Shown piece by piece: positions 11,496 through 34,890 of a stretch of DNA of 64,000 nucleotides. The number at the start of each line of letters is the position of its first letter. Within the stretch, counting starts at the first letter, position 1. This stretch comes from an uncultured Acidobacteriaceae bacterium (GTDB taxonomy: Bacteria > Acidobacteriota > Terriglobia > Terriglobales > Acidobacteriaceae): the NCBI GenBank assembly GCA_963701835.1, contig CAVPBL010000017.1, forward strand, positions 97,116 through 161,115. The letters run 5' to 3'. The notes beneath the pieces were generated by a model, which saw only the letters and a list, made by a program, of their open reading frames with translations, did not search any database and had not been told where the DNA came from. The position numbers and the translations under genes were made by a program.

Positions 11496-11667
11496 AGGCC
11501 CCTCCGGGATGAAAACGATGCTGCAAACACTGTAAGCCCAAATCGGTCCGCCGTGCGGCTGTTTCGCCAAGTTGTTTTTGATGAGCGCAATGCTGCCTTG
11601 CCGATCCGGGCCCGGTGTTGCAGTATGGACTTTGCGGCCCGCGAAGCTGCCGCGCGTGGAGAAGACG

Positions 11668-13132
11668 ATGACGACAGCGATCAAATTTGGCACCTCGGGA
11701 TGGCGGGCCATTGTTGCCGACGAGTTTACCGTGGCCAATATCCGGCTGGCGGTGGCGGGAATTGCCGCATATGTGAAGACACTGCCCGGCGCCGCACCGG
11801 GTGCTGGTGGGCCGCGATCCGCGCTTTCTGGGCGAGAGCTTTGTGGCCGAAGCGGCGCGCGTGCTGGCCGCGGCGGGCGTCACGCCGATCGTGATTCCCG
11901 AGGCCGCGCCCACACCGGCCATCGCGCTACGCGGTGCGCACGCTCAAGACTTCAGGATCCATCAACTTCACCGCCTCGCACAATCCGCCCGAGTACAACG
12001 GCATCAAGTACTCCACGCCCGACGGCGCGCCGGCTCTGCCCGAAGTCACGAAACAGATTGAAGCGGCGATCGAGAAGATTGCCAGCGGCGGAGGCGGCAA
12101 TTCCCGAGCCCCTTCGCAGGAGAACTTTGAGACCGCGGACGTGAAGCCGGCCTTCCTGAAGCGGCTCGCCGAGCTGGTGGATCTGAAAGCCATCGCCAAG
12201 TCGGGCATCAAGGTGGTCTACGATCCGTTCTGGGGCGCGGGGCGCGGCTATCCCTCCGATCTGCTGCGCGAGGCCGGCGTGACGGTGGAGACGGTGCACG
12301 ACTATCGCGACGTGCTCTTCGGCGGCCACGCGCCGGAGCCGTCCGACGAACTGCTGGGCGACGCCAGGAAAAAAATGAAAGAGATCGGCGCCTCGCTGGT
12401 GATCGCCACCGACGGCGATGCGGACCGCTTCGGCATCGTGGATGGCGACGGAACGTTTATCCAGCCGAACTACGTCATCGCGCTGCTCTTCGACTATCTG
12501 GTTGAGACGCGCGGCTGGCGGAACGGCGTGGCCAAGAGCGTGGCCACCACCAACCTGATCAACGCGCTGGCCGATTACCACAAAGTTCCGCTCTACGAGA
12601 CGCCGGTGGGATTCAAGTACATCGGCGCGCTCATCGATCGAGGACAAGATCGCCATCGGCGGCGAGGAGTCGGCGGGGCTCACCATCCGCGGCCACGTGC
12701 CGGAGAAGGATGGCATCATCGCCGGACTGCTCGTGGCGGAGATGGTGGCCACGCGCGGCGCCAGCCTGGGCGCGCAATTGAAGGCGCTTTTTGCCAAGGT
12801 TGGTTCCTTTTATCCCGTTCGCGAGAACTTCCACTTGACCGCGGAGCAGAAAGCCGCGTTCACTGAGAAGATTGAAGGCCGATCCGAAGGAGCTGAGCGG
12901 GCGCAAGGTTGTGCAGGTGGTCAGGACCGACGGGCTCAAGCTGATTCTGGAGGATGGCTCGTGGGTTTGCTACCGGCTGTCCGGGACGGAGCCGGTGGTG
13001 CGGGCCTATACCGAAGCGCGCAACGAGCGGGACATGGAAGCGCTGCGGTCGGCGGCCGAAAAGTTTGTGCTGTGGGCTCAGGTTGAGCCGGTCTCCAGAC
13101 CGGCTGTCGGCGAGTCTCAGACCTGCTCTTGA
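11668..13132 (+). CDS. Phosphoglucomutase/phosphomannomutase family (frameshifted)
   Basis: IKFGTSGWR, TASHNPPEYNGIK, DGDADR, GGEESAG, RLSGTEP. Confidence 0.9.
13087..13126. repeat. REP-like palindrome
   Basis: GCCGGTCTCCAGACCGGCTGT; the same family occurs at 50068-50156. Confidence 0.6.
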
Positions 13133-13569: not shown

Positions 13570-13570
13570 G

Positions 13571-13871: not shown

Positions 13872-15397
13872 TCAAAAGTCGATGTGCGTGCGCACCGTCG
13901 TCACGTACACCGGGCCGCGATCGGTGTTGTAGCCGGGATGGGCAATTTGCGTTCCGCCGATCATGCCGTAGAGTCCGCGCCAAAGATGGGCATTGTAATA
14001 CCACTCCAGAATGTCCTCGCGCCCGTAGGTCAAATTGCCGTCGCCCAGCAGGAAGCCCAGCCCGCCGTAGTGAAGATAATTCTGGTGGTCGCGCTTGATG
14101 GCATTCGAGACAAACGCGACGCCCACCTTGTCGTTGGCTCGATGCCAGCTATGGCCGGCATAATCGCCGCCGAACAGAATCGTCTGGCCAACCTCGGTGT
14201 AAGCGAACGACTCGTGCTGGTCCTCGTTCCAGCCGAAGCGCCCAAAGAGCCGCAGGCTGCCGGTCACTTCCTGCTCGGTGTTCAGTCCGAAGCCGTACTT
14301 CACCGCGCCGAATTTCTCGGTCTTCGTGATGTCGGGCGCCGATACTTTGCCATTCAAGATACTGGTCCACCGACTCGCGGTAGTCGCCCATGTGCGCGTG
14401 ATTCACATAGCTCAGCACGCGCACCGCGCCCTCGCGCTTCGGATCGAGCCAGCGGGCGAAGAGGCCCTTGCGCAATTCGAACTCCCAGTTCTGCCCGTTG
14501 GCGCGGCTGAAGGCCCAGTCGAGGTCGATGCCGTTGGCGACGACGGGCATGGCGGCGATGGCGTACCGCGCCGACCAGATCCGGTCGTCGTACTCCAGAA
14601 TTCCCGCCACGGTGTAGCCGCGCGTATCGGCCGCGTAATCCCACGCGCCGTTGTTGTCGATCGTCCAGTTGGTGAACTGCAGATGGCTGTCGGAGCCAAC
14701 TGAGTTGACGTCGAATGTGTCGGGAAGAGTCATCTTGCCAATGCGAATCTCAAACCGGCGCACCGGCACTTTCGTCGCCAGCGCCAGAGGCCCGCGATCC
14801 TGGTCGGTCATCTCGTTGGTCAAGCCGAAAATCTGATGAATCTCGTCCGCGCGAAAGATATGGCTTGATGCTCAAGCTGGGGTTGCGCACCACGTCCAGG
14901 TTGGTCTCGCCGGCCAGCCCCAGCGACTGCGAGATGCCGCGCCCGCCGGCATTCTCAACGTCGACGATCAGGTCAGTGTTGTAGCGGGTGTTCGGGAACA
15001 ACTGATAGCCGAGATAAAGCGTCGTGACCTCGGACGCCTTGGTTTCAAAGTCGTCGATCAGGCTGTTCGGCCCCTCATAAGGCGAGCGAAAATGCCCGTG
15101 CATCTGGAAGATGCTGTTGGCCTGGCCGGAGACCCAATAGCGCGCGTTCTCCGGGTGAGGCGCGATGGTAAGGAGGGGTCCGCCTCCACTTTCTCTCCCT
15201 GCGGGATTGGCAGGTTGAGTTGCGTTCGTCGTACCAGTCGTTCCACCCGTCAGCGGCAATACCAAAAGCGCATGCGGCACGAGTGCGGACGGTAAATTGT
15301 TTTGTGTTTGCGCTCGGGCGATCACCGCCGTCAGTAGAAAGGCGCAAGTCATCCAGCCGAGCGTTCGTGAAATCAAATTGGGGCAGCAAAAGGACAT
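13872..15397 (-). CDS. Carbohydrate-selective porin, OprB family (frameshifted)
   Basis: Signal peptide; NNGAWDYAADTRGYT; YLHYGGLGFLLGDG; HPGYNTDRGPV; C-terminal F. Confidence 0.8.
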
Positions 15398-18408: not shown

Positions 18409-18759
18409 ATGTGGGGTACAGGTCTATTTACCTACACTGAGTTTCTCATCCGTACGCTGATCAAGTTCCTGCGAAGGATCGGCACAAGCGACTGGCCGGT
18501 CTTCAACGCGATTGTCGTTTCAGCGAAACGAGATGATTCTTTCATGGGATGTAAACTTATTATCATTCACTACAAATATCGCGACGCGGACGGCCGATTC
18601 GAAGGAACTCACAGGCAACCTTTTGTATTCGACAACTACGCTGATGCACATCTGCGCCGCTATCCCGGTGGAACCGAATTTCCTGTGCTCGTAAGCCCCA
18701 AATATCCCTCCTACTCGATCCCTGCTGAAGGAAGAATCATATTTACTCGGGTAAAGTAG
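18409..18759 (+). CDS. Hypothetical protein (DUF3592-like)
   Basis: SDWP...A.VV, Y.Y...DGRFEG, YP.G....V.VSP..P..S pattern. Confidence 0.55.
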   Translation: MWGTGLFTYTEFLIRTLIKFLRRIGTSDWPVFNAIVVSAKRDDSFMGCKLIIIHYKYRDADGRFEGTHRQPFVFDNYADAHLRRYPGGTEFPVLVSPKYPSYSIPAEGRIIFTRVK

Positions 18760-19234
18760 CGTCCAGCACTTCCTGGGCGCGCGCGGCGCGCCACGAGGCG
18801 AGCCGTTCATAGAGAGCCGCGTCGGTCAGCGCCAGAATCTCGGCCGCGAAGAGCGCGGCGTTGGCTGCTCCGGGCTTGCCGATGGCCAGCGTTGCCACGG
18901 GGACGCCCTTGGGCATCTGCACCATCGAGAGCAGCGAGTCCAGTCCGTTGAGCGGTGTGGCCGCAATGGGCACAGCCAGCACGGGAAGGAGCGTCTTGGC
19001 CGCGATCACGCCGGCCAGATGAGCTGCGCCGCCCGCTCCGGCGATCAATACCCGCAATCCCCGCCCCCGCGCCGCCACAACGTATTCGAAGAGTTGATCC
19101 GGAGTGCGATGCGCGCTCAACACCCGCGCCTCATAAGGAATTTCGAGCGCGCGCAGAATCTCAACCGCAGCCGAGAGCACCTCGTAATCGCTCTTGCTGC
19201 CCATCACAACGCCCACCAGCGGTTGCTCGCTCAT
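18743..19234 (-). CDS. purE: N5-carboxyaminoimidazole ribonucleotide mutase
   Basis: [41 protein letters not shown]; -10 TATAAT 6 nt before the ATG. Confidence 0.97.
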
Positions 19235-19343: not shown

Positions 19344-19571
19344 TCAGTGCCGATGCCACGCCTCGACAGCCACTTCGATCACGGCAAACAAAACGCTGAT
19401 CGCGGCGAGAAAGCCTTTGGCGCGCTGCCAGTTCTGTTCATGGCGGTCCATGCGCCGCTCCAGGTCAGCCAGGCGGCCGCCATTGCCATCGCCCATAAGG
19501 CCAGCCATTTGCGACTTGAGCACACTCAGATCGCTCAGCACCTGGGCTTCGAATTCATTCATCATGCGCAT
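19344..19571 (-). CDS. Small coiled-coil + C-terminal TM protein (XhlA/holin-like), last gene of the virion module
   Basis: GDGNGGRLADLERRMDRHE followed by hydrophobic FLAAISVLFAVIEVAV; RBS GGAG. Confidence 0.55.
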   Translation of the reverse strand: MRMMNEFEAQVLSDLSVLKSQMAGLMGDGNGGRLADLERRMDRHEQNWQRAKGFLAAISVLFAVIEVAVEAWHRH

Positions 19572-19615
19572 CCGCCAAACTCCAATTGGCAAATCGTCAC
19601 GAGAGCTGCTTCCAC

Positions 19616-21931
19616 TCACGCGCTCAGCGGCAGGTTGATAAATAGCGCCGTAGAGAACTCAGAATAATTCGGCGGCGTGGAGCCGTCGTACATCCGGATG
19701 TAGAATCGGTCGCTCGCCGAGAAGCGCGAGAAGGTCAGGTTTGGCTGCGCTCCGCGGATCACCAAAGTCGGATCCTCACCGGGCATGAAGACAAAATCGC
19801 GCAGCCGTATCTCGAATCCGCCACCACTGGGTGGAGTCACGCCGGTATTTACCGTGACTGTGCTTCCGTTCAGCGTTGTGACCGTAAGTCCGGTTAGGTT
19901 GGCAAGCACGGTTGGAGCGACGGGCGCAGGCAACCAGGCGTTCGCCGGCACCGTGGCGCTGGTCTTGATGGCTAAGTCATCGGCCCAGTCGTTGGCAAAT
20001 GCGATCTCGTACTTTACTAAGTCAGGGTAACTGGCGCTATATGTCGCCTTGACCCCGCGCACCACGACCTCGGCATTCAGATTCGTTGAAGGCGCATTGA
20101 GGAGCAGTGCGTCTCCCGGCCAGACGTCGACGGCAAAGCTTGCCCGATTGCCTTTGTATGTTCCACTCCATAGCGCGCTCACGCTGGCCGCTGCTTGCTC
20201 CATCACCAGGGCAGCATTGCGGCAATCGGCGGAGCTACGTGCTGGAGGATTGGTGACTGAGCCGATCCACGCGGCCACCGCGGGCGAGCCAGCTTGCGCG
20301 AGCGCCCGCTGGCTGGCGGCGTTGACTACGCGGCCTACGGCCCGGCCAATCGTGCGGTAACTCACTGCGATTTGCTCGCCCGCAACAGGAGTGTAGCCGA
20401 TGTAGAAGGTAACGGTCCCGGTCCGCTCGAGCTGACACTCGGCAGCTTCGGCGGATGTGCCGACTCTCCGTGTGTACGAGCCGCCATTCGGTGGCGTACT
20501 TACAACCCACCCTGACCCTAGGTTCGTTAAGTTCACGGCGCGCATGGTTCCAATCAGATTGATGCTGCTCGCCGGCACTACCATGCAAATTCCGGGTAAG
20601 TAGGTGACGGCGCCATCGTACAGCGTGACCGGCGTTGCGGCGACGCCGTTGACAAACTCCTGAATCTCCATCTGGATTCTTCCCGGGGCGATAAGCCATT
20701 CACCGCCTGCGGCGATGAGGCCGTCATCTCCAAAGGAGTAATAGACGGATCGAGCGCGCTGGCATTCCGGGCAATGCACGCGGACGCGAAGGGTATATTG
20801 GTTTGCGGAGTTCAACGCGAAGGTCGTTCCTGCCGGTGTGCCCTGCACGATTGGTTGCAGAGTTACAGCCCCTGTTCCCTGTTGCGCGGTGACCTGAAAA
20901 CCCGCGGTACAGTCGGACGCGGTTTCGAGGTCGGTAAAGAACCCGGCCACGATACCGGTGCTACCCGGGGAAAGCGTCACGCCGACAGATTCAAGCAGCA
21001 ACGTTCCGCCCATTTCGATTGGATCGAGCCATGTAAGGAGGGTTTGGCCATCGATCCCGGTGCCGCCGTTCATCGCCACGCCGCGCGGACCCAGCGTTAA
21101 GTAGCCGCCTCCGCGGGACACGCCCCAAAGCGCCTGATTGATTTGCGGCCCGTTGAAGAGCTCGCTAATGATGGCGGACTTTGCATTGGCAGGGAAATAA
21201 GGGTCCGCGGCCAGGTTGAACTGGGTTGTCATTCCGTCGCCCAGAAAATACTCCGTAACATAGGCCACCGGCTCGTTCTCGCCGCAGACGGTCACGTCGT
21301 TGGCCAGCGCACGCTTCACGCTGGACGTTAAAGCGAGGCTGGCGAGATTCAAGCTGCCATCCGCTTCGTCGAGTGGATGCACGGTTGCCTGCACGGTCGA
21401 AAGGCTGACCGCGCCACTGACAGCGCGATACGCCGCCCGCGCCATGCCCGCCACCTGTCCAGCGCTCTTGCTCCAATTCGCGCCCACCTCCGGGGTGAAG
21501 TTTCGCACCGGAGTGTTCAGTGAAAGCCCCTGCGTAGAGAGCGGTGTCGATCCGGCATGAACCACAAGCGAGGCGAGCAACGCCCCGGCGTTCCCTCCGG
21601 CAATGCCGGCGCTGCGAGGCATGAGCATCTGGTCGAGCAATAACTCATCGCTCACGGCTTGAATCGCCGTACGATAACGTGGGCCTTCGAGACCTAAGCC
21701 TGCGTATTCAGGTAGCGGACTTACTGCGATATAACCCGTGAAGTAAGTGGTGCCGTCGTCGCCCGTCACTCTGAGAGTTTGGAATCGAGCGGGCACCGGA
21801 AGGCGGCCACTGACAGGCAAGCTTAGCCATAACTCACAGATGGAGGGTTCGTTGATCTTGCGCGTAATTGTCAACGGACGCACGGCGTCGATCCCAGCCG
21901 TGTAATCCTGTCCTTGAATCAAGATCTTCAT
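19616..21931 (-). CDS. Putative tail hub/tip protein (771 aa)
   Basis: Position after the tube gene; N-terminus (ILIQGQDYT..LTITRKINEPS...TYFTGYI) resembles phage hub domains; beta-rich with FN3-like C-terminus (inference). Confidence 0.55.
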   Translation of the reverse strand: MKILIQGQDYTAGIDAVRPLTITRKINEPSICELWLSLPVSGRLPVPARFQTLRVTGDDGTTYFTGYIAVSPLPEYAGLGLEGPRYRTAIQAVSDELLLDQMLMPRSAGIAGGNAGALLASLVVHAGSTPLSTQGLSLNTPVRNFTPEVGANWSKSAGQVAGMARAAYRAVSGAVSLSTVQATVHPLDEADGSLNLASLALTSSVKRALANDVTVCGENEPVAYVTEYFLGDGMTTQFNLAADPYFPANAKSAIISELFNGPQINQALWGVSRGGGYLTLGPRGVAMNGGTGIDGQTLLTWLDPIEMGGTLLLESVGVTLSPGSTGIVAGFFTDLETASDCTAGFQVTAQQGTGAVTLQPIVQGTPAGTTFALNSANQYTLRVRVHCPECQRARSVYYSFGDDGLIAAGGEWLIAPGRIQMEIQEFVNGVAATPVTLYDGAVTYLPGICMVVPASSINLIGTMRAVNLTNLGSGWVVSTPPNGGSYTRRVGTSAEAAECQLERTGTVTFYIGYTPVAGEQIAVSYRTIGRAVGRVVNAASQRALAQAGSPAVAAWIGSVTNPPARSSADCRNAALVMEQAAASVSALWSGTYKGNRASFAVDVWPGDALLLNAPSTNLNAEVVVRGVKATYSASYPDLVKYEIAFANDWADDLAIKTSATVPANAWLPAPVAPTVLANLTGLTVTTLNGSTVTVNTGVTPPSGGGFEIRLRDFVFMPGEDPTLVIRGAQPNLTFSRFSASDRFYIRMYDGSTPPNYSEFSTALFINLPLSA

Positions 21932-21972
21932 TGCAACCCTCTAACCCGTTAAGTTGAATCCTTCCTCGCGAG

Positions 21973-22947
21973 CTATACGAGTGCGTTGGCTGCTGGGCGG
22001 AAACTCCGGTAACATAAGATCCGCTCGCCATCCAACGGGTCGGTGACAGGCAGAGCCAAAAACTGTCCCTTGAGCAGCAGACGCGACTGCCCGTTCTGAT
22101 TCTTCCCATTGAGCGGCGTGATTGCTTCTTCTGCTCCGGTCATGGTCTGCAACCTCGGATAGTGGAAGAAGATTCTCTCGCCCTGGCTGCCCTGCATCAC
22201 GAAGAGCGCCGACCACTCCTGATAGAAGCTGCCGCCCTCACGGTCCACAAATCCCGTGACTGCCTGCAGCTTGGCGCCCGCTGCCGGAGCGCCACCAAGC
22301 AACGGCTCAGCGAGAGTCAGCCCGGTTTCGCCTGCTTGCGTTACCAGCGCAACATTGAAGGTGACGCGGCGGATGTAATCGACATCCGTGAGCGCCTGGC
22401 GCACATATGCGCCTGCGACGGGTGCACCCACAAAACCAGTCTGCCCTGTGTAGTCCACATCCACAGCGATCATCGAGCCGGCCGTGAACATTGCCGCATC
22501 CGCCGGGGCTAACAGAATAGATGTGCTCGCGGAACCGCTTTGCGGAGTGACTGCAGGAATTGCTTGCGCGCCATCCGGCGCCGAAGCGGCGCCAACAGCC
22601 GGTGCGAGTAAGTTCATATGCTGCGAGCCCGTCGCCAGAGCCATCGTCAATTTAGTCCAGCTTAGAAACTGGAAACTGACTCGCGCCTGGACAGTTTCCC
22701 GCACCTGCTCGAGTGGCGCTGCCGGAATGCCCGTCAACAGCGCAGCCGACTTACTCGCGGGCTTGCGGACAAACTCCTGAATCCATCCCAGGCTGATCCA
22801 GGGTGCTGGTGGAGCGTCGAGGTTGAACTGGCCTTGTTGCGTGGGATCAAAGAGGACTGGCGTCTGCGAGGCGCGATTCACCGGCGCAAAATATGCCCGC
22901 ACTCGCCGTATCACCGGCGCCGGACCGGAAAACGAATTTGCGGCCAT
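21973..22947 (-). CDS. Putative tail tube protein (324 aa)
   Basis: Position; WISLGWI, ARVSFQF and IFFHYPRLQ strands typical of siphovirus tube folds (inference). Confidence 0.5.
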   Translation of the reverse strand: MAANSFSGPAPVIRRVRAYFAPVNRASQTPVLFDPTQQGQFNLDAPPAPWISLGWIQEFVRKPASKSAALLTGIPAAPLEQVRETVQARVSFQFLSWTKLTMALATGSQHMNLLAPAVGAASAPDGAQAIPAVTPQSGSASTSILLAPADAAMFTAGSMIAVDVDYTGQTGFVGAPVAGAYVRQALTDVDYIRRVTFNVALVTQAGETGLTLAEPLLGGAPAAGAKLQAVTGFVDREGGSFYQEWSALFVMQGSQGERIFFHYPRLQTMTGAEEAITPLNGKNQNGQSRLLLKGQFLALPVTDPLDGERILCYRSFRPAANALV

Positions 22948-23433
22948 TTACTCCCCCTGCTCCTGGTAGCTATAGACCATGACACTCGCGCTGCGGCTCA
23001 GTTGGTCGCGCTGGATAACAACGGACGAAAACGCGGGTTCATCCCAAAAGACATGCGTCAGCATTGCGGCTGGCGGCGTGGCTGCGTAATTCAGCTTGGG
23101 CGTGTAGAAAGGCTGAAGCATCGCCATCAGTTCCTCATCCATCTCGCTCAAGGCGCGGCCGCGGTCCAATCCACCGAAGCTTTGCGTCCCGCAGGTCTGG
23201 TAGACGACTTCGCACTGCTCGGCCACCATGGCGGAAGCGAGATCGATATCGGCGGCCATACTCAGCCAGCGCAGAACAAACACGTCGCTGGGAAACTGGC
23301 TGAAGGGCGCTTCCGCTTCCTCCACCAGAATTCCCGGCCGCACCGCGCCGCGCAGTAAGATCGTCCGTTCCGGATTGACCACTGTCAGGCGCATACGCAG
23401 CGCCATATAAAACGAATCTTTCGCGTTCTGCAT
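22948..23433 (-). CDS. Putative tail terminator/completion protein
   Basis: 161 aa between head closure and tube, in canonical neck gene order. Confidence 0.5.
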   Translation of the reverse strand: MQNAKDSFYMALRMRLTVVNPERTILLRGAVRPGILVEEAEAPFSQFPSDVFVLRWLSMAADIDLASAMVAEQCEVVYQTCGTQSFGGLDRGRALSEMDEELMAMLQPFYTPKLNYAATPPAAMLTHVFWDEPAFSSVVIQRDQLSRSASVMVYSYQEQGE

Positions 23434-23622
23434 AAGAAGACAGGCAACAGGGATCGGGGATCGGGGATTAGAACAACCGTTCCCCGATCACTCTTCCCTG
23501 CTTCCCAACTCGCCTTTCCGGATCATTGTTCGTCTACGATCGAATGCCGTCCGCACGAAAGCAGATGACTGGCCATCGATCTTGATCCTCGTTCCATGTT
23601 CCCTACTCCCTATTCCCTGCCC

Positions 23623-24058
23623 TTACACCGCTTGCTGCCGCGCCTCGCGCAGGAGCAGCCGGTAGAGATATACCTGGCCGAAGGCTTCGTTGGAAGCGAT
23701 CGACTCAATCAGATAGTCTTGCGCGGCCACGGTGACCGCTAATGTCATGGCAAAAAGAGACTGCGCCGAAGGGAGGTCAAGCGCGTTCAACTGCTGCTCG
23801 ACGCTCGTGGCCGATACCAGCAACTCCCACGTTCGACTCTCCGCCTTCCTTCCAGCTCGGCCGCAGCTTTCGCATCAGGACCGGGCTCAGTGGCACATCG
23901 GCAAAGGTGGTTGCTACCAACCCCACCTCCGACATGCTGGGTTCCGTATTTGTGCCGGTCACGCGCAGAAGGGCCGTGGCTCCTGCCACACTGCGCAGCA
24001 GCGCATCGGCCAGCATCCGTGGCGCTCCCATCGGGTTGCGCGGCGCCGTATCGCTCAT
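23623..24058 (-). CDS. Putative head-closure (stopper) protein (one frameshift near 23830)
   Basis: ORFs 23777..24058 and 23623..23823 join; C-terminal YLIESI....YLYRLLLR beta pattern. Confidence 0.5.
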
Positions 24059-24061
24059 CGC

Positions 24062-24685
24062 TCACCCCAACCTGTTCGCCACGTACGGATTCAGCCAAGC
24101 CTGCACCGTTTCGTCGATCAGCGAACTTGAGAAATACTTCATTTGCATTGTGTCGATCCTGCTCATGCTCGTGTTCAGCGCCGGCGTCGCCTGCGCATTG
24201 CGCACAATCTGCGCGCACGCTGACTTCACATCGTCGCCGATGGTTGCCGAGCCCGCCGTGTAAGTCACCTTCACTTCGTTGTAAGGCAGTCCCAGGACGT
24301 TCCAGGGCAGCGTCAGCTCCCCGGTACTCGCGTCGTAGTCCACAAGGCTGGGATCGATCGTCGTCCATTGCCCGGGCAATGCAAATGCCCACGCAATTTC
24401 AAAGAGCGGTTCGTGCGGGAGCTCTCCACGTCTGGGCCTTGCGTACCGTCCTTCGATGCCCGCGATCGGCGTCGTCGCCGGGGCCAGCGGCGCCAGCGGA
24501 AGATAGCTTAGCCGCACCGTCTGCGACCCGGCAGTTACGCGCAGGCGCTCGGTGTACTGAATGACGTTCAGGTCAGGCCGCCTGCAGTAACTGTTGATCA
24601 AAGCCGTCGCGGCCGTAATCCAGTCCGCCGTAGTCCCTGCCGGCAATCCAAAGTTCGGGTAATCCGCTGGCTCGAGATATGCCAT
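24062..24685 (-). CDS. Head-tail adaptor (HK97 gp6 / SPP1 gp15-like)
   Basis: AATALINSYCRR, VKVTYTAG...DDVKSACAQIV, V..WLNPY; follows the capsid gene. Confidence 0.75.
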   Translation of the reverse strand: MAYLEPADYPNFGLPAGTTADWITAATALINSYCRRPDLNVIQYTERLRVTAGSQTVRLSYLPLAPLAPATTPIAGIEGRYARPRRGELPHEPLFEIAWAFALPGQWTTIDPSLVDYDASTGELTLPWNVLGLPYNEVKVTYTAGSATIGDDVKSACAQIVRNAQATPALNTSMSRIDTMQMKYFSSSLIDETVQAWLNPYVANRLG

Positions 24686-24698
24686 CGCGTTTCCTTTC

Positions 24699-24827
24699 GC
24701 AGTTGTCAGTTATCAGTGATCAGTTATCGGTTATCAGTCAATTAGCTGCGTCCAAGAGCTTCCGCGATTTCCTGTTCGGAAGCTCGAATCGCAAACTGAC
24801 AACTGACCACTGACCACTGACAACTGT
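24699..24827. repeat. Inverted pair of heptamer arrays (CAGTTAT-like x5 ... ACTGACM x4)
   Basis: cagttgtcagttatcagtgatcagttatcggttatcag and aactgacaactgaccactgaccactgacaactg are mutually complementary. Confidence 0.85.
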
Positions 24828-24832
24828 CTTTC

Positions 24833-25801
24833 TTACCGGTCCACCAGCACCTGATAGTGGGCGAAGTTCGCGCCCTTCACCACCGGAGCGCCGAACTTGA
24901 CTGCCACATACTGGTGGGTCAACGAGTTCGGTAAGCCGAGCTGGAAGACGCGCGGCGTGGGATCGCCCAGCCAGTGGTACTCGATCAGATCCTCGGTGAC
25001 GATGTAGGCCGGAAGCACGGCATTGCCCGTTCCCGGCGTACCGGTATAGCCAAGGCTCCAATCGGGGATCAGGGGCAGGTCGCCGGCCTGCGTCGAAATC
25101 ATCTTCACGCGGAATCCGCCGGTGATCTGGTCGGTGTTTAGCACCACGTTGTACTCGGACTTCATCTCCTGGTCGATCAGGTCCAGCAGAACCGGGTTGG
25201 CATAGATCGCTGTGGGCCGCACATAGTAGCCGGTGTTGGCCACCATCTGCGCCACCGTGGTCTTGATCGTGTCCACGATCTTCATCGCGGCGGTCACGGT
25301 TACCGAGTTGCCGCCAGCCGCGATCTGCGCAGCACAACCCATGTACTGCGTAGTGGTCGGAGCGCTCAGGCTGGTGTCGTTGCCGTTCCACAAGGCCACA
25401 TCGTGCGCCACCATCACGCCGCTCACCGTGTCCACAAGGTCCTTGGCCTGCAGATATGCAAACTGCTTCTGCTGGTCACCCAGCTCGATGTCGAAAAGGT
25501 TGTAGTTAATCTGCGCCACGATCGCCTTCAGCGGCACGCTCAGCTCGATCCTCGTCGGGCTTACCACCGTGGGATTGATGCTGCGCGGATTTACAAAGCC
25601 GGCAGTGCCCGGATTGGGGATCGCCGTCTCCTCAAAGAACCGCGATGGATGGCCGGTCGCGGGAACCTGCTTGATGCGCTGCCCAAAGGAGCTCGAGCGC
25701 CGGCAGATGTCGAAAATCTCGGTCTGATACAACGGAACTTCGATGGCTCCCGGCCCGATGAAATCCGCTGCCGCGTGAATGTCTGCAAAGGTTGCGTTCA
25801 T
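24833..25801 (-). CDS. Major capsid protein (HK97 fold, SU10-MCP-like)
   Basis: 322 aa after portal/protease/scaffold; ALWNGND, PTAIYANP, ISTQAGDLPLIPD pattern. Confidence 0.75.
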   Translation of the reverse strand: MNATFADIHAAADFIGPGAIEVPLYQTEIFDICRRSSSFGQRIKQVPATGHPSRFFEETAIPNPGTAGFVNPRSINPTVVSPTRIELSVPLKAIVAQINYNLFDIELGDQQKQFAYLQAKDLVDTVSGVMVAHDVALWNGNDTSLSAPTTTQYMGCAAQIAAGGNSVTVTAAMKIVDTIKTTVAQMVANTGYYVRPTAIYANPVLLDLIDQEMKSEYNVVLNTDQITGGFRVKMISTQAGDLPLIPDWSLGYTGTPGTGNAVLPAYIVTEDLIEYHWLGDPTPRVFQLGLPNSLTHQYVAVKFGAPVVKGANFAHYQVLVDR

Positions 25802-25831
25802 AGGCTCTTTCCGCCCCCTCCATGGGGCCTT

Positions 25832-25948
25832 TTCTCAGGTTTCAGGTTTCAGGTTTCAGGTTTCAGGGGTAAGGTGTCAGGACTCAGTGGTCATTGTTTA
25901 GGAAAGGATCGGCATTTCTGATCCCTGACCCCTGAAACCTGATCCCTG
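25832..25948. repeat. Inverted pair of heptamer arrays (TTTCAGG x5 ... CCTGAxx x4)
   Basis: tctcaggtttcaggtttcaggtttcaggtttcagg and ctgatccctgacccctgaaacctgatccctg. Confidence 0.85.
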
Positions 25949-25951
25949 CTT

Positions 25952-26350
25952 CTACGCGATCGCGCCGGCGCGCAGCAGTTGAGTCTTCACCGCGATGCGC
26001 TGTTCCAGGCTCAGCCCGGACAACGCCGCATCCAGGGCGCGCACATCCACCGGTCCCTCGCCGATGCCGTGCTTGGCCAGCATCTCGGCAGTGGCGGCGG
26101 GCATGGTGCGGCGCAGCGGGTTGAGTGCGCTTTGCGACGACGCCGCTTTTACTTCGGCCAACTCGCGCTCCACGGCGGCCAGCTTCTCCGCCAGCTCGGT
26201 TTCGCGGCGGCTCTGTTCCACCGTCGCCGAAATCCTCTCCACCTCTCCGGAGAGCTCGCCCTGGCGTTCTTCCAGCCAGCTCAGCGTCTTCTCCAACAAG
26301 GCGGTTGCGGCCTCCAGCCGCTCAACAATGCCTTTCTCTTCTTGTTCCAT
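25952..26350 (-). CDS. Capsid scaffold protein (coiled coil)
   Basis: E/L/A-rich helical 132 aa immediately upstream of the capsid gene; RBS AGGA. Confidence 0.65.
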   Translation of the reverse strand: MEQEEKGIVERLEAATALLEKTLSWLEERQGELSGEVERISATVEQSRRETELAEKLAAVERELAEVKAASSQSALNPLRRTMPAATAEMLAKHGIGEGPVDVRALDAALSGLSLEQRIAVKTQLLRAGAIA

Positions 26351-26404
26351 GTTTTTCCTTTCCTGCTTCCATGAATTCCGCACTAACATCCGGTTCACCC
26401 AGTG

Positions 26405-26432
26405 ACAAAAACGGCTCCGCGAACGGAGCCTC
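26405..26432 (-). terminator. Intrinsic terminator between protease and scaffold
   Basis: GGCTCCG-TTCG-CGGAGCC-GTTTTTG on the minus strand. Confidence 0.8.
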
Positions 26433-26542
26433 TTCGATTACTTTCTTACTCGCTGATTGACTAACTCGCCTACTTACTCATTTACCACCCGGCTTACTCC
26501 ATTGGCTGACTCCGCCAACTCCGCTAACTCCGCTGCCTTCCG

Positions 26543-27043
26543 CTAACTCGCCATGCGGAAGCTTGTTGCCCGGTAGGCCGCTTTGTCTCTCAGCAGAATC
26601 GCCGCCCCCGTAAACATGACCCGGGTCAGCTTCCACACCTCGGCCCGCATATCTTCCACGCGTGCATCGGCCAGCTCGTAACTCATGCCCAGCGCCTGCG
26701 GCGCGTGCGCCGCAATCGCCGCGGCCACTTCGGGAAAGTCGCGCGCGTAAAGGTATCCGCGCACCACCAGGCGCGGCCCGATTACGTCGGCCTCGGTCAG
26801 CAGGCCGATCTTGCGCCGCGCGTCGTGGCCGTCCCAGCCCGGCCTGTAATCCACGGCCATGCCCAGCAACGAGGGCAGCGCCTTTTCCGCCGCTTCACGC
26901 GTCAGCATCACACGGTGCCCGCGCGCTCCGGCCGGCGCTTTATCGCTGGCCGCATTCACCAACGTCAAAACTCCCTCAAAGGGCACCCGGTTGGGATGCT
27001 TGTCCACGTGAGGGATCTTTACCGCCATCGCTTCCAATCGCAT
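26543..27043 (-). CDS. Putative prohead (maturation) protease
   Basis: Between portal and scaffold; HD..RKIG, L.VRGYL and GMSYE (His/Ser) pattern of phage prohead proteases. Confidence 0.65.
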   Translation of the reverse strand: MRLEAMAVKIPHVDKHPNRVPFEGVLTLVNAASDKAPAGARGHRVMLTREAAEKALPSLLGMAVDYRPGWDGHDARRKIGLLTEADVIGPRLVVRGYLYARDFPEVAAAIAAHAPQALGMSYELADARVEDMRAEVWKLTRVMFTGAAILLRDKAAYRATSFRMAS

Positions 27044-27089
27044 GCTCGCTCCGCTCCGCCAGGGACTCAGTCCCCAGTCCCTGTGACCC

Positions 27090-28373
27090 TTAGTCCCTGC
27101 TCTCTGCTTCGCCCGCCAGCAACACTGCTCTGTTCTCAGCCAGCGGCCCCAATCCGCGCATCGCCCGAACTTCTTCGACCGTCAGCACGCCCGCCTGAAG
27201 CAACTGCACCTGCACCTGCAACTCCGTCTGCTCGTCGCGCGCGGTCAGCTCGTTGAACACAAACTCAAACTCCCTCCATCCGATGCACTTGGCGAAGAGG
27301 TCGCGCGTGATGTGGCCGGCCAGCAGCACAGCCAGCGGCGAGATCGCTCCGCGGAAGGCCTCGTCGGCCATCTCCGAGGCCGTCGAGCGATTCACATCGC
27401 TCTCCAGCCCCATCAGCAACGGAGGCAACCCGAAGGCATTGGCCACCATTCGGATCAGGAACTCCTGCCAGGCCAGGCGCAGGTCTGCGTCCGTTCCCTG
27501 GGCAAAGCGCAGCACCTCCGGCTTCTGCTCGGTCGAAAGCAGCGGCACGCGCCCCGTGCCTTCGATCTCGTCCTGCCACCAGCGGATCAACCGGTCGTGC
27601 TGCGCCGGCGTAGCTTCGTTCAGCCACAGCGCGTACTGCGCCACCGTGTTGGCCGCCAGCTTACCCGCAAAACGGTGCGCGCTCAGGAACTGGTTCACCG
27701 TCTCGAAGGCCACCTCCAGCGGCCCCAGCCCGAAGGGGGTAAAGCTGCGCGGATTCATCCGCACGTACATCAACTGGCGGTCGAGCAGCTCCACCGCGCC
27801 CGACTCCAGTTGCCCCGGCACGGCCTGCGCGTAGCGCGGCGTATCCTCCTGCCCGTCCCACTTGGCGTTGATGCGGATCGAAGCCCCATCCACCGGCCAC
27901 AGCACGGCCGGCCGCTCCGGGTCTCCGGTCGCCTCCATCTCCATGGCCCCGAAGCCGCCGGTCAGCGCATCCTCGATCACCTGCTCGATCAAGGAGCGGA
28001 AACTGTCGGCCGGATTCGGCTCCTCCAGCACGCGGCGCAATGCCCGCATCTTGGCCGCCGCAAAGGCCGCATCTTCCGGCCTTACCCCGCGGCGCACCCG
28101 CACCTGCCAGTCCATGGCCGCAATGCGGTCCTTGATGACATTGATTGCCCGCCGTACCACCGGCGTCTCTGCAAACCCGCGCAGGTTCATGGGCGTGGGC
28201 TTGGGCAGGTGCCGCCCCGGAAACTCGACCGGACTCAGGATCGCGGGCAAAGCCAGCGTCTTGCGCTCCGTCTCCGCCTCAAGCTCGATCTGCCCGCACT
28301 TCCCGCCCTGGTCTGCCTGCCTGCCGTGGCGGGCCTGCCGCCACATCTCCCGCAACTGCTCGCCTACCTTCAC
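27090..28373 (-). CDS. Phage portal protein (HK97-family-like)
   Basis: PVVRRAINVIKDRIA, LEEPNP, LWPVDG, FGLGPLE, VANAFGLPP..MG..DVNRST, GVLTVEEVR..GL.PL; GTG after AAGGAAGG. Confidence 0.92.
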   Translation of the reverse strand: MKVGEQLREMWRQARHGRQADQGGKCGQIELEAETERKTLALPAILSPVEFPGRHLPKPTPMNLRGFAETPVVRRAINVIKDRIAAMDWQVRVRRGVRPEDAAFAAAKMRALRRVLEEPNPADSFRSLIEQVIEDALTGGFGAMEMEATGDPERPAVLWPVDGASIRINAKWDGQEDTPRYAQAVPGQLESGAVELLDRQLMYVRMNPRSFTPFGLGPLEVAFETVNQFLSAHRFAGKLAANTVAQYALWLNEATPAQHDRLIRWWQDEIEGTGRVPLLSTEQKPEVLRFAQGTDADLRLAWQEFLIRMVANAFGLPPLLMGLESDVNRSTASEMADEAFRGAISPLAVLLAGHITRDLFAKCIGWREFEFVFNELTARDEQTELQVQVQLLQAGVLTVEEVRAMRGLGPLAENRAVLLAGEAESRD

Positions 28374-28389: not shown

Positions 28390-28425
28390 AACAAAAAGGC
28401 ATGACCCGTGGGCCATGCCTTTTTG
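28390..28425 (-). terminator. Intrinsic terminator immediately upstream of the portal RBS
   Basis: AAAAAGGCATGGCCC-ACG-GGTCATGCC-TTTTTGTTT, then GCAAGGAAGG RBS. Confidence 0.85.
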
Positions 28426-28658: not shown

Positions 28659-29492
28659 TTACACGCGCAGTTCCCGCCGCGCTGTCTCCGCCACGCGGCC
28701 CATGTCCGAGGTGGTCAGCACCCGGATTTGGTGCTCCTCCATCGCCTCCACGCCGAAGCGGTACAACTCCAGCCGCTCCGGCTCTTCCTCCGTGGCCCTC
28801 AAGCGCGCCGCCGGCTCGACCACGGCGGTCAGCTCCAGTTCGGCCTTCTCTACCCGCTCCACGCCCGCTCTCAGCGCGGTGGCCGAAAAGGCCAGAACCT
28901 TGGCCATCTCCAGCCCTGGATCCAGGCTCACCGCATGAAACATCCGCACCAGTCCGTTGGGCCGGTATCCCATGTCGATGCGCAACGGATCTCCGGGCCG
29001 CGTGTACTCCGAGGCGGCGATCCGCTTGCGCAGCAGATCCCACACGCCGGCATGCTCGAATTCGCTGCGCATGCGGGCTTGGATGGCCGCCCGGCCGCTT
29101 AGCCTTGGGCTCCGTTCCCGCGGCGGAGGCTCGACATAGAGCCGCATCAGCTCCTCCATTCCCGCGGGCATGCTCTCGGCAAGGTAGGCCTTGGGCTCCG
29201 TCATCTGCACGGTCAGCGAGAGCGACTCCTCGAGAAGCTGCATCAGCCTGCCCCCGGGCTCCTGCTCCAGCCGCCGCCGCAGTTCGCTTTCCATCCCTTC
29301 CAGCAGCGCCGTATCGGCATCGGGATCCAGGCAGCGCACCCGCCGCCAGTCGCGGGTGAACCGCACCTCCCCGTGCGGGTTCCCCTGCTCGCGCAGAATC
29401 ACCCCGATGTGCACATACTCGTTCCGCACCGCGTCCGGCACATACCGGAGCAGTCGAAACTCGCACGCGCGCCGCTGGTGTTGGCTGTTCAT
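28659..29492 (-). CDS. DUF3037 domain-containing protein
   Basis: FRLLRYVPDAVRNEYVHIGVIL N-terminal signature; downstream of a HipA-like kinase. Confidence 0.85.
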   Translation of the reverse strand: MNSQHQRRACEFRLLRYVPDAVRNEYVHIGVILREQGNPHGEVRFTRDWRRVRCLDPDADTALLEGMESELRRRLEQEPGGRLMQLLEESLSLTVQMTEPKAYLAESMPAGMEELMRLYVEPPPRERSPRLSGRAAIQARMRSEFEHAGVWDLLRKRIAASEYTRPGDPLRIDMGYRPNGLVRMFHAVSLDPGLEMAKVLAFSATALRAGVERVEKAELELTAVVEPAARLRATEEEPERLELYRFGVEAMEEHQIRVLTTSDMGRVAETARRELRV

Positions 29493-29531
29493 ATTCTTTC
29501 GTAGTTCGTGATTCCTGGTCAGGACAAGTCT

Positions 29532-29640
29532 GAGTGCGAGTGTGAGTGTGAGTTTGAGTGTGGGTGTGAGTGTGGGTGCGAGTGTGAGTGTGGGTGTGAG
29601 CGATCAGCGCACACAGTCCACTCACACTCACACTCACACT
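29532..29640. repeat. Hexamer microsatellite (GAGTGT-like x11) with inverted (ACTCAC) x3 arm
   Basis: Direct reading of the sequence; 18-nt spacer between the arms. Confidence 0.9.
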
Positions 29641-29687: not shown

Positions 29688-30554
29688 TCAATTCACCCTC
29701 ATCGTATCCCCCCATCGCGCCGCCCTCCAAGCCGCTTCCTCCCCTTCCTTTCCCTTCTCGCCCCATTTGGGAAACGGCCTCCGGTCCGAGTTCCCAAACG
29801 CCTCAATCAACTCTCGGACCCGGCTGCGCCGCGCCAGGAGCTTCTCCACCAGCGCTTCCATTTCGCCCAGGTCCCCGCCGTACCACTCCGGCGGAACCTC
29901 GTTGGCTGCCGCCCAAACAGACTCCGCCGGCATCGTCTCCACACGCGTCAACCACGGCTCGAACGCCTCCCATCCCGTGATCTGCCGGTACACGTCATTG
30001 CGGTAGTACACCCCGCGCAGCGGCGCATCCTCGAAGCGCCACTCCCCGGCATGAAAGCAGTAGCCGAAGTCGATGAAGACGGCCTTGTACCGCTGCTCCC
30101 GCTGGCGGCGCGTAAAGACCGCCTGCCGTCCATTGGCATTGGCCGTCCACTTGTCCACGGCCAGGATCCCCGCAAACTCGCTCAGGTTCTTCACCTCGGC
30201 CAATTGCTCTTCGGCCAGGTAGTCCACGACCTGGCCCGGCATCATGCCGCCCGCGAAGCGCGACCCAAACTGCAGTCCCGCCCGGCAACGCACGCGCGTC
30301 CGCCCCAGGTCGATCTCCAGTTCCGGCGTATTCTCAACCAGCCAGCTCGAAACCTCCACCACCTCGGTCTCCGGCACGGTCAGCCCCGCCGCCGCCGCCA
30401 GGCGCGAGGCCAGAAACTCATTGGCCAGCACACGGGTGTGCTGCGGGTTGTTCTGGAACTTGACTACGTAGATGTGGCCGTCCGCGCCCAGCATCAACTG
30501 GCCCTGCGCGCCGCCCCGCATGCGCCGGATCTGCTGCACCGCCAGAACCGCCAC
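29688..30554 (-). CDS. HipA-like kinase (HipA_2 family)
   Basis: RMRGGAQ glycine loop, YVVKF, LANE, DKWTANANGRQ, FIDFGYCF. Confidence 0.85.
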   Translation of the reverse strand: MAVLAVQQIRRMRGGAQGQLMLGADGHIYVVKFQNNPQHTRVLANEFLASRLAAAAGLTVPETEVVEVSSWLVENTPELEIDLGRTRVRCRAGLQFGSRFAGGMMPGQVVDYLAEEQLAEVKNLSEFAGILAVDKWTANANGRQAVFTRRQREQRYKAVFIDFGYCFHAGEWRFEDAPLRGVYYRNDVYRQITGWEAFEPWLTRVETMPAESVWAAANEVPPEWYGGDLGEMEALVEKLLARRSRVRELIEAFGNSDRRPFPKWGEKGKEGEEAAWRAARWGDTMRVN

Positions 30555-30613: not shown

Positions 30614-30779
30614 TTCAGCTCTCAGCCGGCAGCTTTTGGTTTTTGCCTTCCAGCTTCTAGCCGATCTGCGCGCAGGAAAATAATCGGGGATCTGGGACGT
30701 CGCCGTCGCTGCAGCACAACTTTGCGCGGCGCGGCTAGCGGCGGCAAGCTAGCAGCTAGAGGCTAGCAGCTAGTAGCTT
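30614..30779. repeat. Inverted heptamer arrays (CAGCTxx ... GCTAGxx)
   Basis: tcagctctcagc...cagcttctagc and gctagcagctagaggctagcagctagtagct. Confidence 0.65.
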
Positions 30780-31878
30780 GCTTTCCCCATCCGCTTCGCC
30801 TCTTCCTCGCCGTCCAGCACGCGAAACACGCCTTCCGCCAGCGCCTGCAACTCGTCCTCGCCCGGATACACCGCGACCGGCGCAATCCACTCCACGGTTC
30901 CGCGCAGCCGCTCCACCAACCGCTCCGAGTGCGCCATCCCGCCGGTAAGCAGCATCGCGTCCACCTTCCCTTCCAGCACCGCGGCCATCGCTCCGGCCTC
31001 CTTGCCGATCTGGTAGACCATGGCCTCGAACACCGCCGCTGCCTGCCGGATCGCCCGCATCGATCCGCCGCTCCACTTCCATCAGGTCGCGCGTCCCAAG
31101 ATACGCGAACAGCCCCCCGTCGCCAAAGACATGGCGATCGAGCTCCTTCTGCGTCATGGTGCCGCTAAAGCACAGCTTGATCAGCTCGCGCACCGGCAGC
31201 GATCCGGTGCGATCCGGGCCGAACGGCCCCTCTTCGATCGAGTTGCTGTCGATCATTCGCCCGCCGCGGTGCGCCGAGACCGTGACCCCGCTGCCCATGT
31301 GAGCCACGATCAGCCGCAAATCCGCATAACGCCCGCCCCTGCCCGCGCGCGTAGCGCCGCGCCACCGCCTTGGTGTTCAGTGCGTGGCCGATAAACGACC
31401 GGCGGACCAGCGGCGAGCCGGAGAGCCGCGCGCACGCCTGCCACTCGTCCACCGTCACCGGATCCACGATGTACGCGTTCACCTCGGCGGCACTGGCAAA
31501 GCGCAGCGCCAGCACCGCTCCCAGGTTCGACGCATGTTCGCCGCGCCGCGCACGGCGCAATTCCTCCACCATCGTGTCCTCCACGAGATAAGTGCCGCAT
31601 TCCATCGGCGGCAGCAGACCGCCGCGGCCGGCAACCGCGGCCCAGCGCTCCTCGCCCTTCCCGCTTTGGCTGTATCCCGCCTCCGCGAGCGCTGCCGCGA
31701 TCAGTCCCGCCCGGTACTCCAGCCGGTCCAGCATGGGCCGCCCGCGAAACCGCGCCACCTCGTCGTCGCCGTGGTGAATGTTCCGCGCCATCTCCTCGCC
31801 CGCGCGCGTGTAGACGCCGAATTTCGTCGATGTCGTTCCTGGATTAAGGACAAGAACCCGGCCCTGCTCGCCGCTCAA
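30770..31878 (-). CDS. buk: Butyrate kinase (frameshifted)
   Basis: [55 protein letters not shown]. Confidence 0.92.
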
Positions 31879-33277: not shown

Positions 33278-34890
33278 TGCCCAGCCAACTGCTCGCCCGC
33301 AAGTCGATCGACAAGCTCATCAGCGACTCGGAAGAACCCGAGCACGCGCTGAAGAAGAGCCTCGGGCCGTGGTCGCTCACCGCGCTGGGCATCGGCGCGG
33401 TCATCGGCTCGGGCATCTTCACCGTCATCGGCACGGCCATGGCCGGGCCAGCATTTCGATCGTCCCACCATCGCCGAGCACGCCGCTCATCCACTACCTC
33501 ATCCTCCACACCGCGATTGCCGGCCGCCCCGGCGCCGGACCCGCCCTGGCGCTCTCCCTCGTGCTGGTCGCCATCGTCTGCGCCTTCACCGGTCTCTGCT
33601 ACGCCGAAATGGCCTCCATGATCCCCATCGCCGGCTCGGCCTACACCTACACCTACGCCACTCTCGGCGAACTCGTCGCCTGGATCATCGGCTGGGACCT
33701 GATCCTCGAATACGCCTTCAGCAACATGAGCGTGAGCGTCGGCTTCGCCGCGCACATCGTCGACCTGCTCGACTGGTTCGGCATTCATCCGCCGCTCATG
33801 TGGATCTCGCCCGCCTATCTGCCCACCGGCCTGCAGGACCTGGCCGGCAACAACCTCTACAATCCCGGCTGGCACTTCGGCTTCAACATTCCCGCCTTCC
33901 TCATCGTGATGATCCTCACGGTCATCCTGGTGCGCGGCATCCGCGAGTCGGCGCGCGCCAACAACATCATGGTGCTGGTGAAGATGGCCGCCATCCTGGT
34001 CTTCATCTTCGCCGCCGCCAGCTTCATCAAGCCGCACAACTGGCATCCCTTCATGCCCAACGGCTGGACGGGCGTGCTCACCGGCGGCTCCATCATCTTC
34101 TTCACCTACATCGGCTTCGACTCCGTCTCCACCGCGGCCGAAGAGTGCCACAATCCGCAGCGCGACCTGCCCATCGGCATCCTGGCCACGCTCGTCGCCT
34201 GCACGCTGCTCTACGGCGGCGTGGCCATCGTGCTCAGCGGCATCGTGCCCTGGCAGATCGGTCATGGGCGACGCGGCGCCGGTGGTCAACGCGCTCAAGC
34301 GGCTCACTATCGCTGCAGCGGCAGCAGCGAGTTGCACTGGGTGCGACTCTTCGTGCTGCATCGGCGCGCTCATGGGCATGATCTCGTCGATCCTCGTCTT
34401 CCAGCTCGGCCAGGCCCGCATCTGGTTCGCCATGTCGCGCGACGGCCTGCTGCCCCCCATCTTCAGCCGCATCCATGCGCAGTTCCGCACCCCGGCCTTC
34501 GCCACCTGGGTGGCCGGATTCGTCGTCGGCATCCCCGCCGGACTGCTCGACATCGGCACCGTCGCCAACCTCTCCAACATCGGCACGCTGTTCGCCTTCG
34601 TCCTCGTCTCCGCCGCCGTCATCATCCTGCGCTACCGCGAACCCGACCGCCACCGCGGCTTCCGCGCTCCGCTCGGTCCGGTGTTTCCCGTGCTCAGCAT
34701 CGTCTTCTGCATCGTTCTCATGATGGGCCTTGAAGTCATGACCTGGATGGCCTTCTTCGCCTGGCTCGTCATCGGCCTTGCTCATCTACTTCCTCTACAG
34801 CCGCCACCGCTCCGAGTTCGCCAAGTCCGCTCAAGCTGTCGCTCCTGCAGTGCCAGCCGGCTATCGGCGGCTTCCTCACGCATTCAGTGA
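33278..34890 (+). CDS. APC-family amino acid permease (frameshifted)
   Basis: LTALGIGAVIGSGIF, CYAEMASMIPIAGSAYTY, IGWDLILEY, YIGFDSVST, AMSRDGLLP, NIGTLFAF. Confidence 0.92.

Follow-up and report, generated by a model that had tools for sequence, protein, structure and literature searches.

A probably domesticated phage-derived particle element of Acidobacteriaceae, a candidate gene transfer agent

The virion gene block in the window

We analysed a 64,000-nt stretch of the Acidobacteriaceae contig CAVPBL010000017.1 (the window), which belongs to a Terracidiphilus genome with a 68% complete assembly, and in which a block of phage-type virion genes occupies 19344–28373 of the minus strand. A sequence-only reading had described ten co-oriented genes in head-neck-tail order, which are present, and had taken them for a minimal module, but they are neither minimal nor self-contained: the block makes up the structural third of an element that also has terminase, fibre and regulators, considered here as a candidate gene transfer agent (GTA). 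The portal protein, the HK97 capsid, the adaptor and the gp27-type hub are identified, and five of the other names rest on position or motifs.

The portal gene (27090–28373) matches Pfam PF04860 (E 1.2e-53) and phrog_2662/12. It is followed by a probable prohead protease (26543–27043), named from its position and from H73, D74 and S121, which are invariant in 28 sequences and which we take to be the family motif; the protease has no profile match, and a solved-structure sequence search likewise gave nothing significant. A probable scaffolding protein (25952–26350) is assigned by position and weak matches of coiled-coil type. The next gene (24833–25801) encodes the HK97-fold major capsid protein of 322 amino acids, recognized by structure search, by Foldseek and, through distant homologues, by phrog_10. 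All 50 rows of the structure search (VIA) were HK97-type shells (best Z 12.0) found with a capsid model of low confidence (predicted local distance difference test score, pLDDT, 44), on which the Foldseek match also rests, and phrog_10 was matched by 3 of 47 aligned distant homologues. An encapsulin nanocompartment was rejected: encapsulins are the top fold matches, but portal, TerL and adaptor are co-conserved with the capsid.

The head–tail adaptor (24062–24685) matches phrog_442 (E 3e-15), and a probable head-closure protein (23623–24058) and a probable tail terminator (22948–23433) are named from position. For the probable tail-tube or distal-tail-like protein (21973–22947) the sole basis is a language-model lead from the ESM Atlas (tail tube family 0.85, Phage_tail_2 0.84), as it has neither a profile match nor a PDB sequence match; solved-structure sequence searches with capsid and tube gave no significant match. 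The hub (19616–21931, 771 amino acids), a baseplate protein of the gp27/Mu gp44/T5 pb3 type with an inserted lectin-like sandwich, is named from its fold: its AlphaFold model (pLDDT 91) retrieved Mu gp44, MuSo2, VgrG, the T5 tip and calreticulin-type lectins with Foldseek, and its BFVD structure matches are phage tail proteins. The last gene (19344–19568) encodes a small coiled-coil protein with a C-terminal membrane helix, XhlA- or holin-like by shape only and without a match to an XhlA profile; it is intact in 66 of 66 loci, with a nonsynonymous-to-synonymous rate ratio (dN/dS) of 0.078. Profile scans gave no family match for scaffold, closure, terminator and XhlA-like proteins, whose names come from position and shape.

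Nine of the ten genes are open, so the claim of essentially intact genes stood for these, and the closure gene (24058–23623) carries one frameshift near 23800. This is most likely an assembly error, because the gene is a single open reading frame (ORF) of about 144 amino acids in 74 of 77 related loci and because pgm, buk, rpoB and terL are likewise broken in this assembly. In the window, frameshifts were also seen in phosphoglucomutase-like (11572–13132), porin-like (13872–15397), buk (30756–31878) and permease (33369–34890) genes. The assembly is indel-prone, and therefore apparent pseudogenes here are unreliable.

Integrase, repressor, replication gene, endolysin and att-like repeat had been reported absent. 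This is true of the window, where no att-like repeat was found flanking the block, but for the repressor it holds there only, because one exists elsewhere in the same genome. The block also has neither a terminase nor a tape measure. Its GC content (59–66%) agrees with that of the contig (61.6%), and neither an Rfam match nor a tRNA was found in the window. The spacers carry the host heptamer arrays as described, at 23450, 23600, 24700, 24794, 25835 and 25918 inside the block, with further arrays at 13570, 30747 and 33224 outside it. Genome-wide, 7-mers make up 220 of 247 short-period tandem arrays, being the dominant, intergenic short repeats. The conserved downstream flank is purE (18743–19234, minus strand; Pfam AIRC and synteny).

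Inheritance of the element within the family

The nearest named relatives are Terracidiphilus and other Acidobacteriaceae. The capsid gene is present in 20 of 24 genomes of the genus and in none of 16 from another family of the order. Across the family it occurs in 130 of 200 genomes and 89 of 116 genera, almost always as a single copy; this tally takes in three unpublished genomes (G042, G061 and G176), on which no other result rests. A broad-profile search found it in 30 of 36 family genomes and in 0 of 364 other Acidobacteriota genomes, and in other genera TerL accompanies it in 46 of 47 capsid-positive genomes as against 0 of 12 capsid-negative ones. Thus where a patchy distribution was looked for, a family-wide one was found.

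The site is likewise fixed rather than variable. Gene order was read over 40 kb in 29 family genomes, and purE or the pyruvate dehydrogenase (PDH) E2 gene lies within 2.5 kb of the block end in 22 of these 29 regions, and the pair of HipA-like kinase and DUF3037 genes adjoins the other end in 28. Three capsid-negative genomes (G466, G011 and G084) keep deletion scars at the same site. The scar types (L261, L269 and L272) are a repressor fused towards hipA, a hipA fragment joined to the hub end, and a hipA left beside PDH E2.

We compared the tree of nine module genes with that of RpoBC in 28 genomes, leaving out G076 and the present genome (G000), whose rpoB genes are split. The module tree recovered 11 of 12 strongly supported RpoBC splits and shared 13 of 25 splits overall (shuffle maximum 3), with a patristic correlation of 0.90; the module, and the capsid with it, follows the host. 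Over 80 loci, pairwise dN/dS of the module genes was 0.078–0.170, compared with 0.064 for typA and 0.112 for purE (pairs not independent), and the capsid gene was intact in all 80, so that relatives show purifying selection and not the relaxed selection or pseudogenization that was looked for. Closest homologues inside complete prophages were also sought, and the few phage-borne homologues nest within the host clade. Distribution, site, tree and selection together support the earlier claim of a vertically inherited particle-forming system rather than a decaying prophage, and we regard it as almost certain that this phage-derived gene set is domesticated and host-inherited.

Existing descriptions file such regions differently. 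Most subdivision 1 genomes have a single portal (near-universal in Table 1 of PMC5900883), and the same paper names a ‘cluster 153’ whose prophages it takes to be likely active; among Terriglobales proviruses, ‘group (ii)’ includes a region of Granulicella sp. WH15 (PMC11924767), a strain which carries this capsid; and phage genes or a cryptic phage are mentioned in PMC3469429 and PMC12142844. These passages probably describe the present element, although coordinates are unmatched. In the parts available, neither PMC5900883 nor PMC11924767 proposes domestication or a GTA, both speaking of prophages or proviruses. An ordinary active prophage family is what prophage predictors, apparently these two papers and IMG/VR records point to. 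It is hardly credible here: a temperate prophage has integrase and att, patchy presence, variable sites and a tree unlike that of its host, whereas the element has no integrase, replication genes or att, keeps the same site across genera and follows the host tree. Moreover, the capsid had no match in 50,697 phage records, and 25 of 30 IMG/VR loci turned out to be pieces of the host module; many of the ‘acidobacterial proviruses’ that virome catalogues list are accordingly genes of the host.

A dead or helper-dependent prophage held in place by HipA–DUF3037 addiction would account for the loss of the element from about 35% of family genomes and for hipA homologues that stay behind in several capsid-negative ones. 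Addiction, however, cannot keep every structural gene at dN/dS 0.08–0.17 with the capsid intact in 80 of 80 loci, and one genome (G088) keeps the module without hipA, while in the present genome the element is split over three loci. We consider this explanation very unlikely and, by the dN/dS values, largely refuted already.

Terminase, fibre and control genes of the wider element

In the 29 regions, the element starts with a divergent CI-like repressor (helix-turn-helix and a weak S24 domain, 21 regions), a zinc ribbon and a sigma70-region-4 protein (22 regions). A dual-specificity phosphatase in some, one or two variable fibre genes and the large terminase (29 regions) follow, and then the HipA-like kinase, DUF3037 gene and ten block genes. 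Wherever the regulators are linked, the element is 18–26 kb long. In the present genome it lies in three pieces, with the regulators at about 493–495 kb of C14, fibre and terminase at about 158–167 kb of C21, and the remainder in the window. In a rearranged lineage (L049, L046 and L062; G623) the protease-to-tube block stands ahead of fibre and terminase, and the portal beside the hub. Of 53 extra ORFs with at least 150 amino acids that lie within the element or next to it, one is an insertion sequence transposase, and no integrase or replication protein is among them. The phosphatase (L104:7466–7939 and homologues) was seen in the regulatory block of 12 regions and is possibly a counterpart to the HipA kinase.

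The terminase of this genome had no match to the Pfam terminase families and surfaced only in a tblastn search with a relative's protein. The gene adjoins hipA in 29 of 29 regions and, in this assembly, is frameshifted, as are the closure gene and housekeeping genes. Its acids in what we take, from the familiar layout, to be Walker A, Walker B and nuclease motifs are invariant in 27 sequences, and it has a T4 gp17-type nuclease match. The nearest phage TerLs are those of Roseobacter CRP-7 and of Stx2-converting phages (Stx2/933W group); Stx2/933W phages are headful packagers. The fibre is variable (900–2200 amino acids), rich in cysteines and furnished with beta-helix or pectate-lyase domains, and 24 of 27 fibre ORFs have, by a simple hydropathy rule, a hydrophobic leader resembling a signal peptide ahead of the conserved N-terminal domain. 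In this genome the fibre leader is broken by a frameshift (L209:6170–6300, on C21). A GH73 endolysin with further membrane or spanin-like genes was seen behind the XhlA-like gene in two sister lineages only (L117:11599–13417 and L123:5872–6324).

Between terminase and portal, in 28 of 29 regions, stands a HipA-like kinase gene of the PDC-M66A/DS-6A/HipAD type (29688–30554, minus strand; Pfam HipA_2, PADLOC PDC-M66A E 2e-9), together with a gene (28659–29492, minus strand; Pfam PF11236, PADLOC PDC-M66B E 3e-7) for a DUF3037 protein, likely the antitoxin of the kinase. A hexamer-type CACT/GTGA array lies between the two at 29515–29640 of the window. The adjacent kinase and DUF3037 genes are the gene set of HipAD, DS-6 and PDC-M66 systems; unlike those, the pair of the element is not mobile: it occurs in one copy, passes down vertically and sits between terminase and portal, and its activity is predicted. 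The PDC-M66 pair defends against phage on its own (PMC12548924, PMC13092281), and in Caulobacter an immune-like system controls GTA release (PMC13236601).

About 20 nt before the portal start lies a hairpin with a U tract resembling an intrinsic terminator (28390–28424, minus strand; fold −26 kcal/mol). Such a hairpin precedes the portal in 45 of 60 genus-level loci, compared with 7 in shuffled sequences, and in 18 of 28 family regions, compared with 4.0. A second terminator-like hairpin, between protease and scaffold (26404–26430, minus strand), occurs in 54 of 77 genus-level loci (shuffled, 3) and in just 4 of 29 family regions; a hairpin before the capsid gene is commoner there (18 of 29). 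A palindrome before portal and fibre in the present genome was dropped, as it is not evident in the spacers of relatives. The Caulobacter GTA is governed by the RogA repressor, the GafYZ activators and an internal terminator that requires antitermination (PMC11150451). The repressor facing a small activator pair, together with the hairpins, parallels this arrangement, and by analogy antitermination is likely. The catalytic Ser and Lys of cleavable repressors are apparently not conserved in the repressor alignment, and SOS induction is therefore doubtful.

Probable function of the particle, and phage-borne capsid copies

The element shares with GTAs a host-chromosomal, vertically inherited location, the lack of replication and integration genes of its own, and virion and packaging genes under purifying selection. 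RcGTA and CcGTA carry a Dit-hub-peptidase-megatron set, whereas the element has one large hub, a fibre with an export-like leader and HipA–DUF3037 inside the operon. It also belongs to another phylum, and profile scans gave no sign of shared descent; orthology with RcGTA g1–g15, including a tape measure, was not found, and the RcGTA capsid is a generic fold match at Z 7.6 (no direct sequence comparison). Like these agents, it is a host-fixed head–tail cluster without replication or integration genes and with accessory genes at other loci; it likewise has a repressor over an activator pair and an internal terminator of the kind needing antitermination (PMC11150451), and immune-like genes tied to the cluster (PMC13236601). 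By this comparison the element may work like an agent of the RcGTA/CcGTA type, as a candidate GTA and not as a member of that family.

The reading that we prefer, with a probability of roughly 0.55, is a repressed, likely antitermination-controlled and headful-packaging GTA-like particle that would package pieces of the host chromosome. In most cells the repressor would keep the activator silent. In a few cells the sigma-region-4 protein would activate and antiterminate the operon, as GafYZ do for the Caulobacter GTA, and the terminase would fill small heads with chromosomal DNA, no other DNA being available. The stub tail, of about one tube ring and the hub, would take up a fibre matured outside the cytoplasm; the producer would die, with the XhlA-like protein and the HipA–DUF3037 pair in the operon as possible killers; and the variable fibre would select the kin to which the particles bring DNA. 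‘GTA’ is here a candidate label, packaging and transfer being predicted from genes.

Several observations weigh against this reading. Four strong module splits, all at deep nodes, conflict with RpoBC, and about a third of family genomes are without the capsid gene. The sigma-region-4 gene is retained in 17 of 26 capsid-negative genomes; it may therefore have other jobs, and we rejected it as a marker of the element. No small terminase was recognized. No tape measure was found in the element or in four of five complete genomes (a tape-measure match in G088 was set aside, lying 1.4 Mb from the element), and DNA ejection therefore lacks an explanation. Most lineages have no endolysin, the GH73 enzyme being present behind the XhlA-like gene in just 2 of 29 regions; GH73 homologues occur elsewhere in three of five complete genomes, their link to the element being uncertain. 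Moreover, a fibre with an export signal is unlike a virion assembled in the cytoplasm, and the capture of loop-damaged capsids by phages, described below, fits a defence role at least as well.

The missing tape measure, the fibres with their leaders, cysteines and beta-helix or pectate-lyase domains, and a hub that resembles those of injection systems would also suit particles made for another job, such as PBSX-like killing or adhesion, DNA release, or the display of an exported polysaccharide-cutting fibre on a stub-tailed shell. PBSX has a sheath and a tape measure. The element shares with PBSX and tailocins a fixed structural module and, in shape only, a small XhlA-like protein at its end; it differs in having neither sheath nor tape measure and in possessing head, portal and terminase, which tailocins lack. 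A contractile sheath gene, as in PBSX, R-type tailocins and extracellular contractile injection systems, gave no match in the element, and no conserved ORF there is left unassigned. Since the element also has no toxin or cargo gene, and the catalytic residues of the terminase and the portal are under strong selection, implying DNA filling, we hold another particle job to be quite unlikely.

Five of the 30 IMG/VR loci are not host module fragments. In two large phages, G620 (214 kb) and G621 (89 kb), which are equipped with a terminase, portal, head protein, DNA polymerase and integrase of their own, a host-derived capsid copy stands among the replication genes, outside the phages' own head modules; G621 also holds the protease. 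Phage copies nest in the host clade, as host monophyly was rejected (approximately unbiased test, p-AU 6.6e-5), with at least two captures. In copies of the G620/G621 type, residues 58–83 show either a scrambled sequence (27% identical to the consensus) or a deletion (8%), and the remainder is 77–78% identical, whereas none of 268 host-type copies, among them hit-list proteins counted as host type without context, falls below 54% in this segment. By alignment and the usual HK97 layout, residues 58–83 are presumably the E-loop. The loop-scrambled or loop-deleted copies lie at L302:6001–6969, L303:6001–6969, L312:1495–2388 and L327:220–1185. dN/dS between two related phage copies was 0.19. A third phage copy, on a 19.5-kb fragment with terminase genes of its own, keeps the loop, and among 80 metagenome loci only one further loop-altered copy was found. 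A phage fragment (G622; L297:116–1718) has intact scaffold and capsid genes 68–82% like those of the host and sister to host G195, standing upstream of the phage's own small and large terminase genes.

As far as these few records allow, one would expect subunits that lack the loop to disrupt the building of shells. The loop-altered phage capsids are candidate anti-GTA proteins, judged from their sequences, and their capture suggests that the particles matter to infecting phages. The same copies bear on a domesticated anti-phage device, in which infection would switch the element on, its terminase and heads would redirect or cut up phage DNA or else compete with the phage for its parts, HipA–DUF3037 would abort the cell, and phages would answer with assembly-poisoning capsid copies. 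The PADLOC match of the kinase pair to PDC-M66, a stand-alone defence pair (PMC12548924, PMC13092281), the lone altered capsids of the two large phages, the rejected host monophyly and the dN/dS of 0.19 argue for it. However, the phage copies amount to only five phage records and one short contig from two or three lineages, and in one of them (L044) the loop is retained. Defence systems tend to be replaced quickly, whereas the element is fixed, and a variable fibre that binds cells, together with the hub, suggests that something is delivered to cells. Blocking would pay for a phage against a GTA, too, if such an agent took phage DNA or killed the host cell too soon. The altered copies make an anti-phage device a serious rival, of rather low probability. 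Capsid-forming phage-inducible chromosomal islands (PICIs) and satellites with genes for capsid interference likewise have a small HK97 head module and a capsid-level conflict with phages, but the element has no integrase or primase and has its own hub and fibre, and the altered capsid gene belongs to the phage rather than to the island. A tentative and rather unlikely possibility is an independently domesticated particle without a tape measure that serves the transfer of host DNA and the defence against phages at once: its terminase would divert phage DNA, its fibre would be exported and joined outside the cytoplasm, and phages would counter with E-loop-less capsids, an ‘anti-GTA’ class.

If the GTA-like reading is true, it would reveal another, independent origin of GTAs and a path by which genes move in soil, Acidobacteriaceae being abundant in soils and peat, and the loop-damaged phage capsids would offer a handle on why bacteria keep GTAs, whether for gene transfer, defence or both. 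No GTA described for Acidobacteriaceae was found in the literature searched, nor any claim of GTA or domestication for this element, subscription texts, figures and bioRxiv supplements lying outside reach. Phages exist for cultured Granulicella or Tunturiibacter strains (PMC11924767).

Expression data come from Granulicella sp. WH15, in which the NCBI protein FTO74_00145 (34.7 kDa) is this capsid. The tag GWH15_00145 (35 kDa) was detected at trace level in one of six replicates (PMC7315648, supplement 3), and we infer that it is FTO74_00145 from its mass and because it comes 13 tags after purE (GWH15_00080), a position that agrees with the rearranged order. No other module tags are listed in the same proteome sheet. 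Trace capsid protein fits production by few cells, the particle itself not being evidenced by the proteome. GWH15_00145 also stands among the proteins that are down in high sugar (PMC7074687, Table S6).

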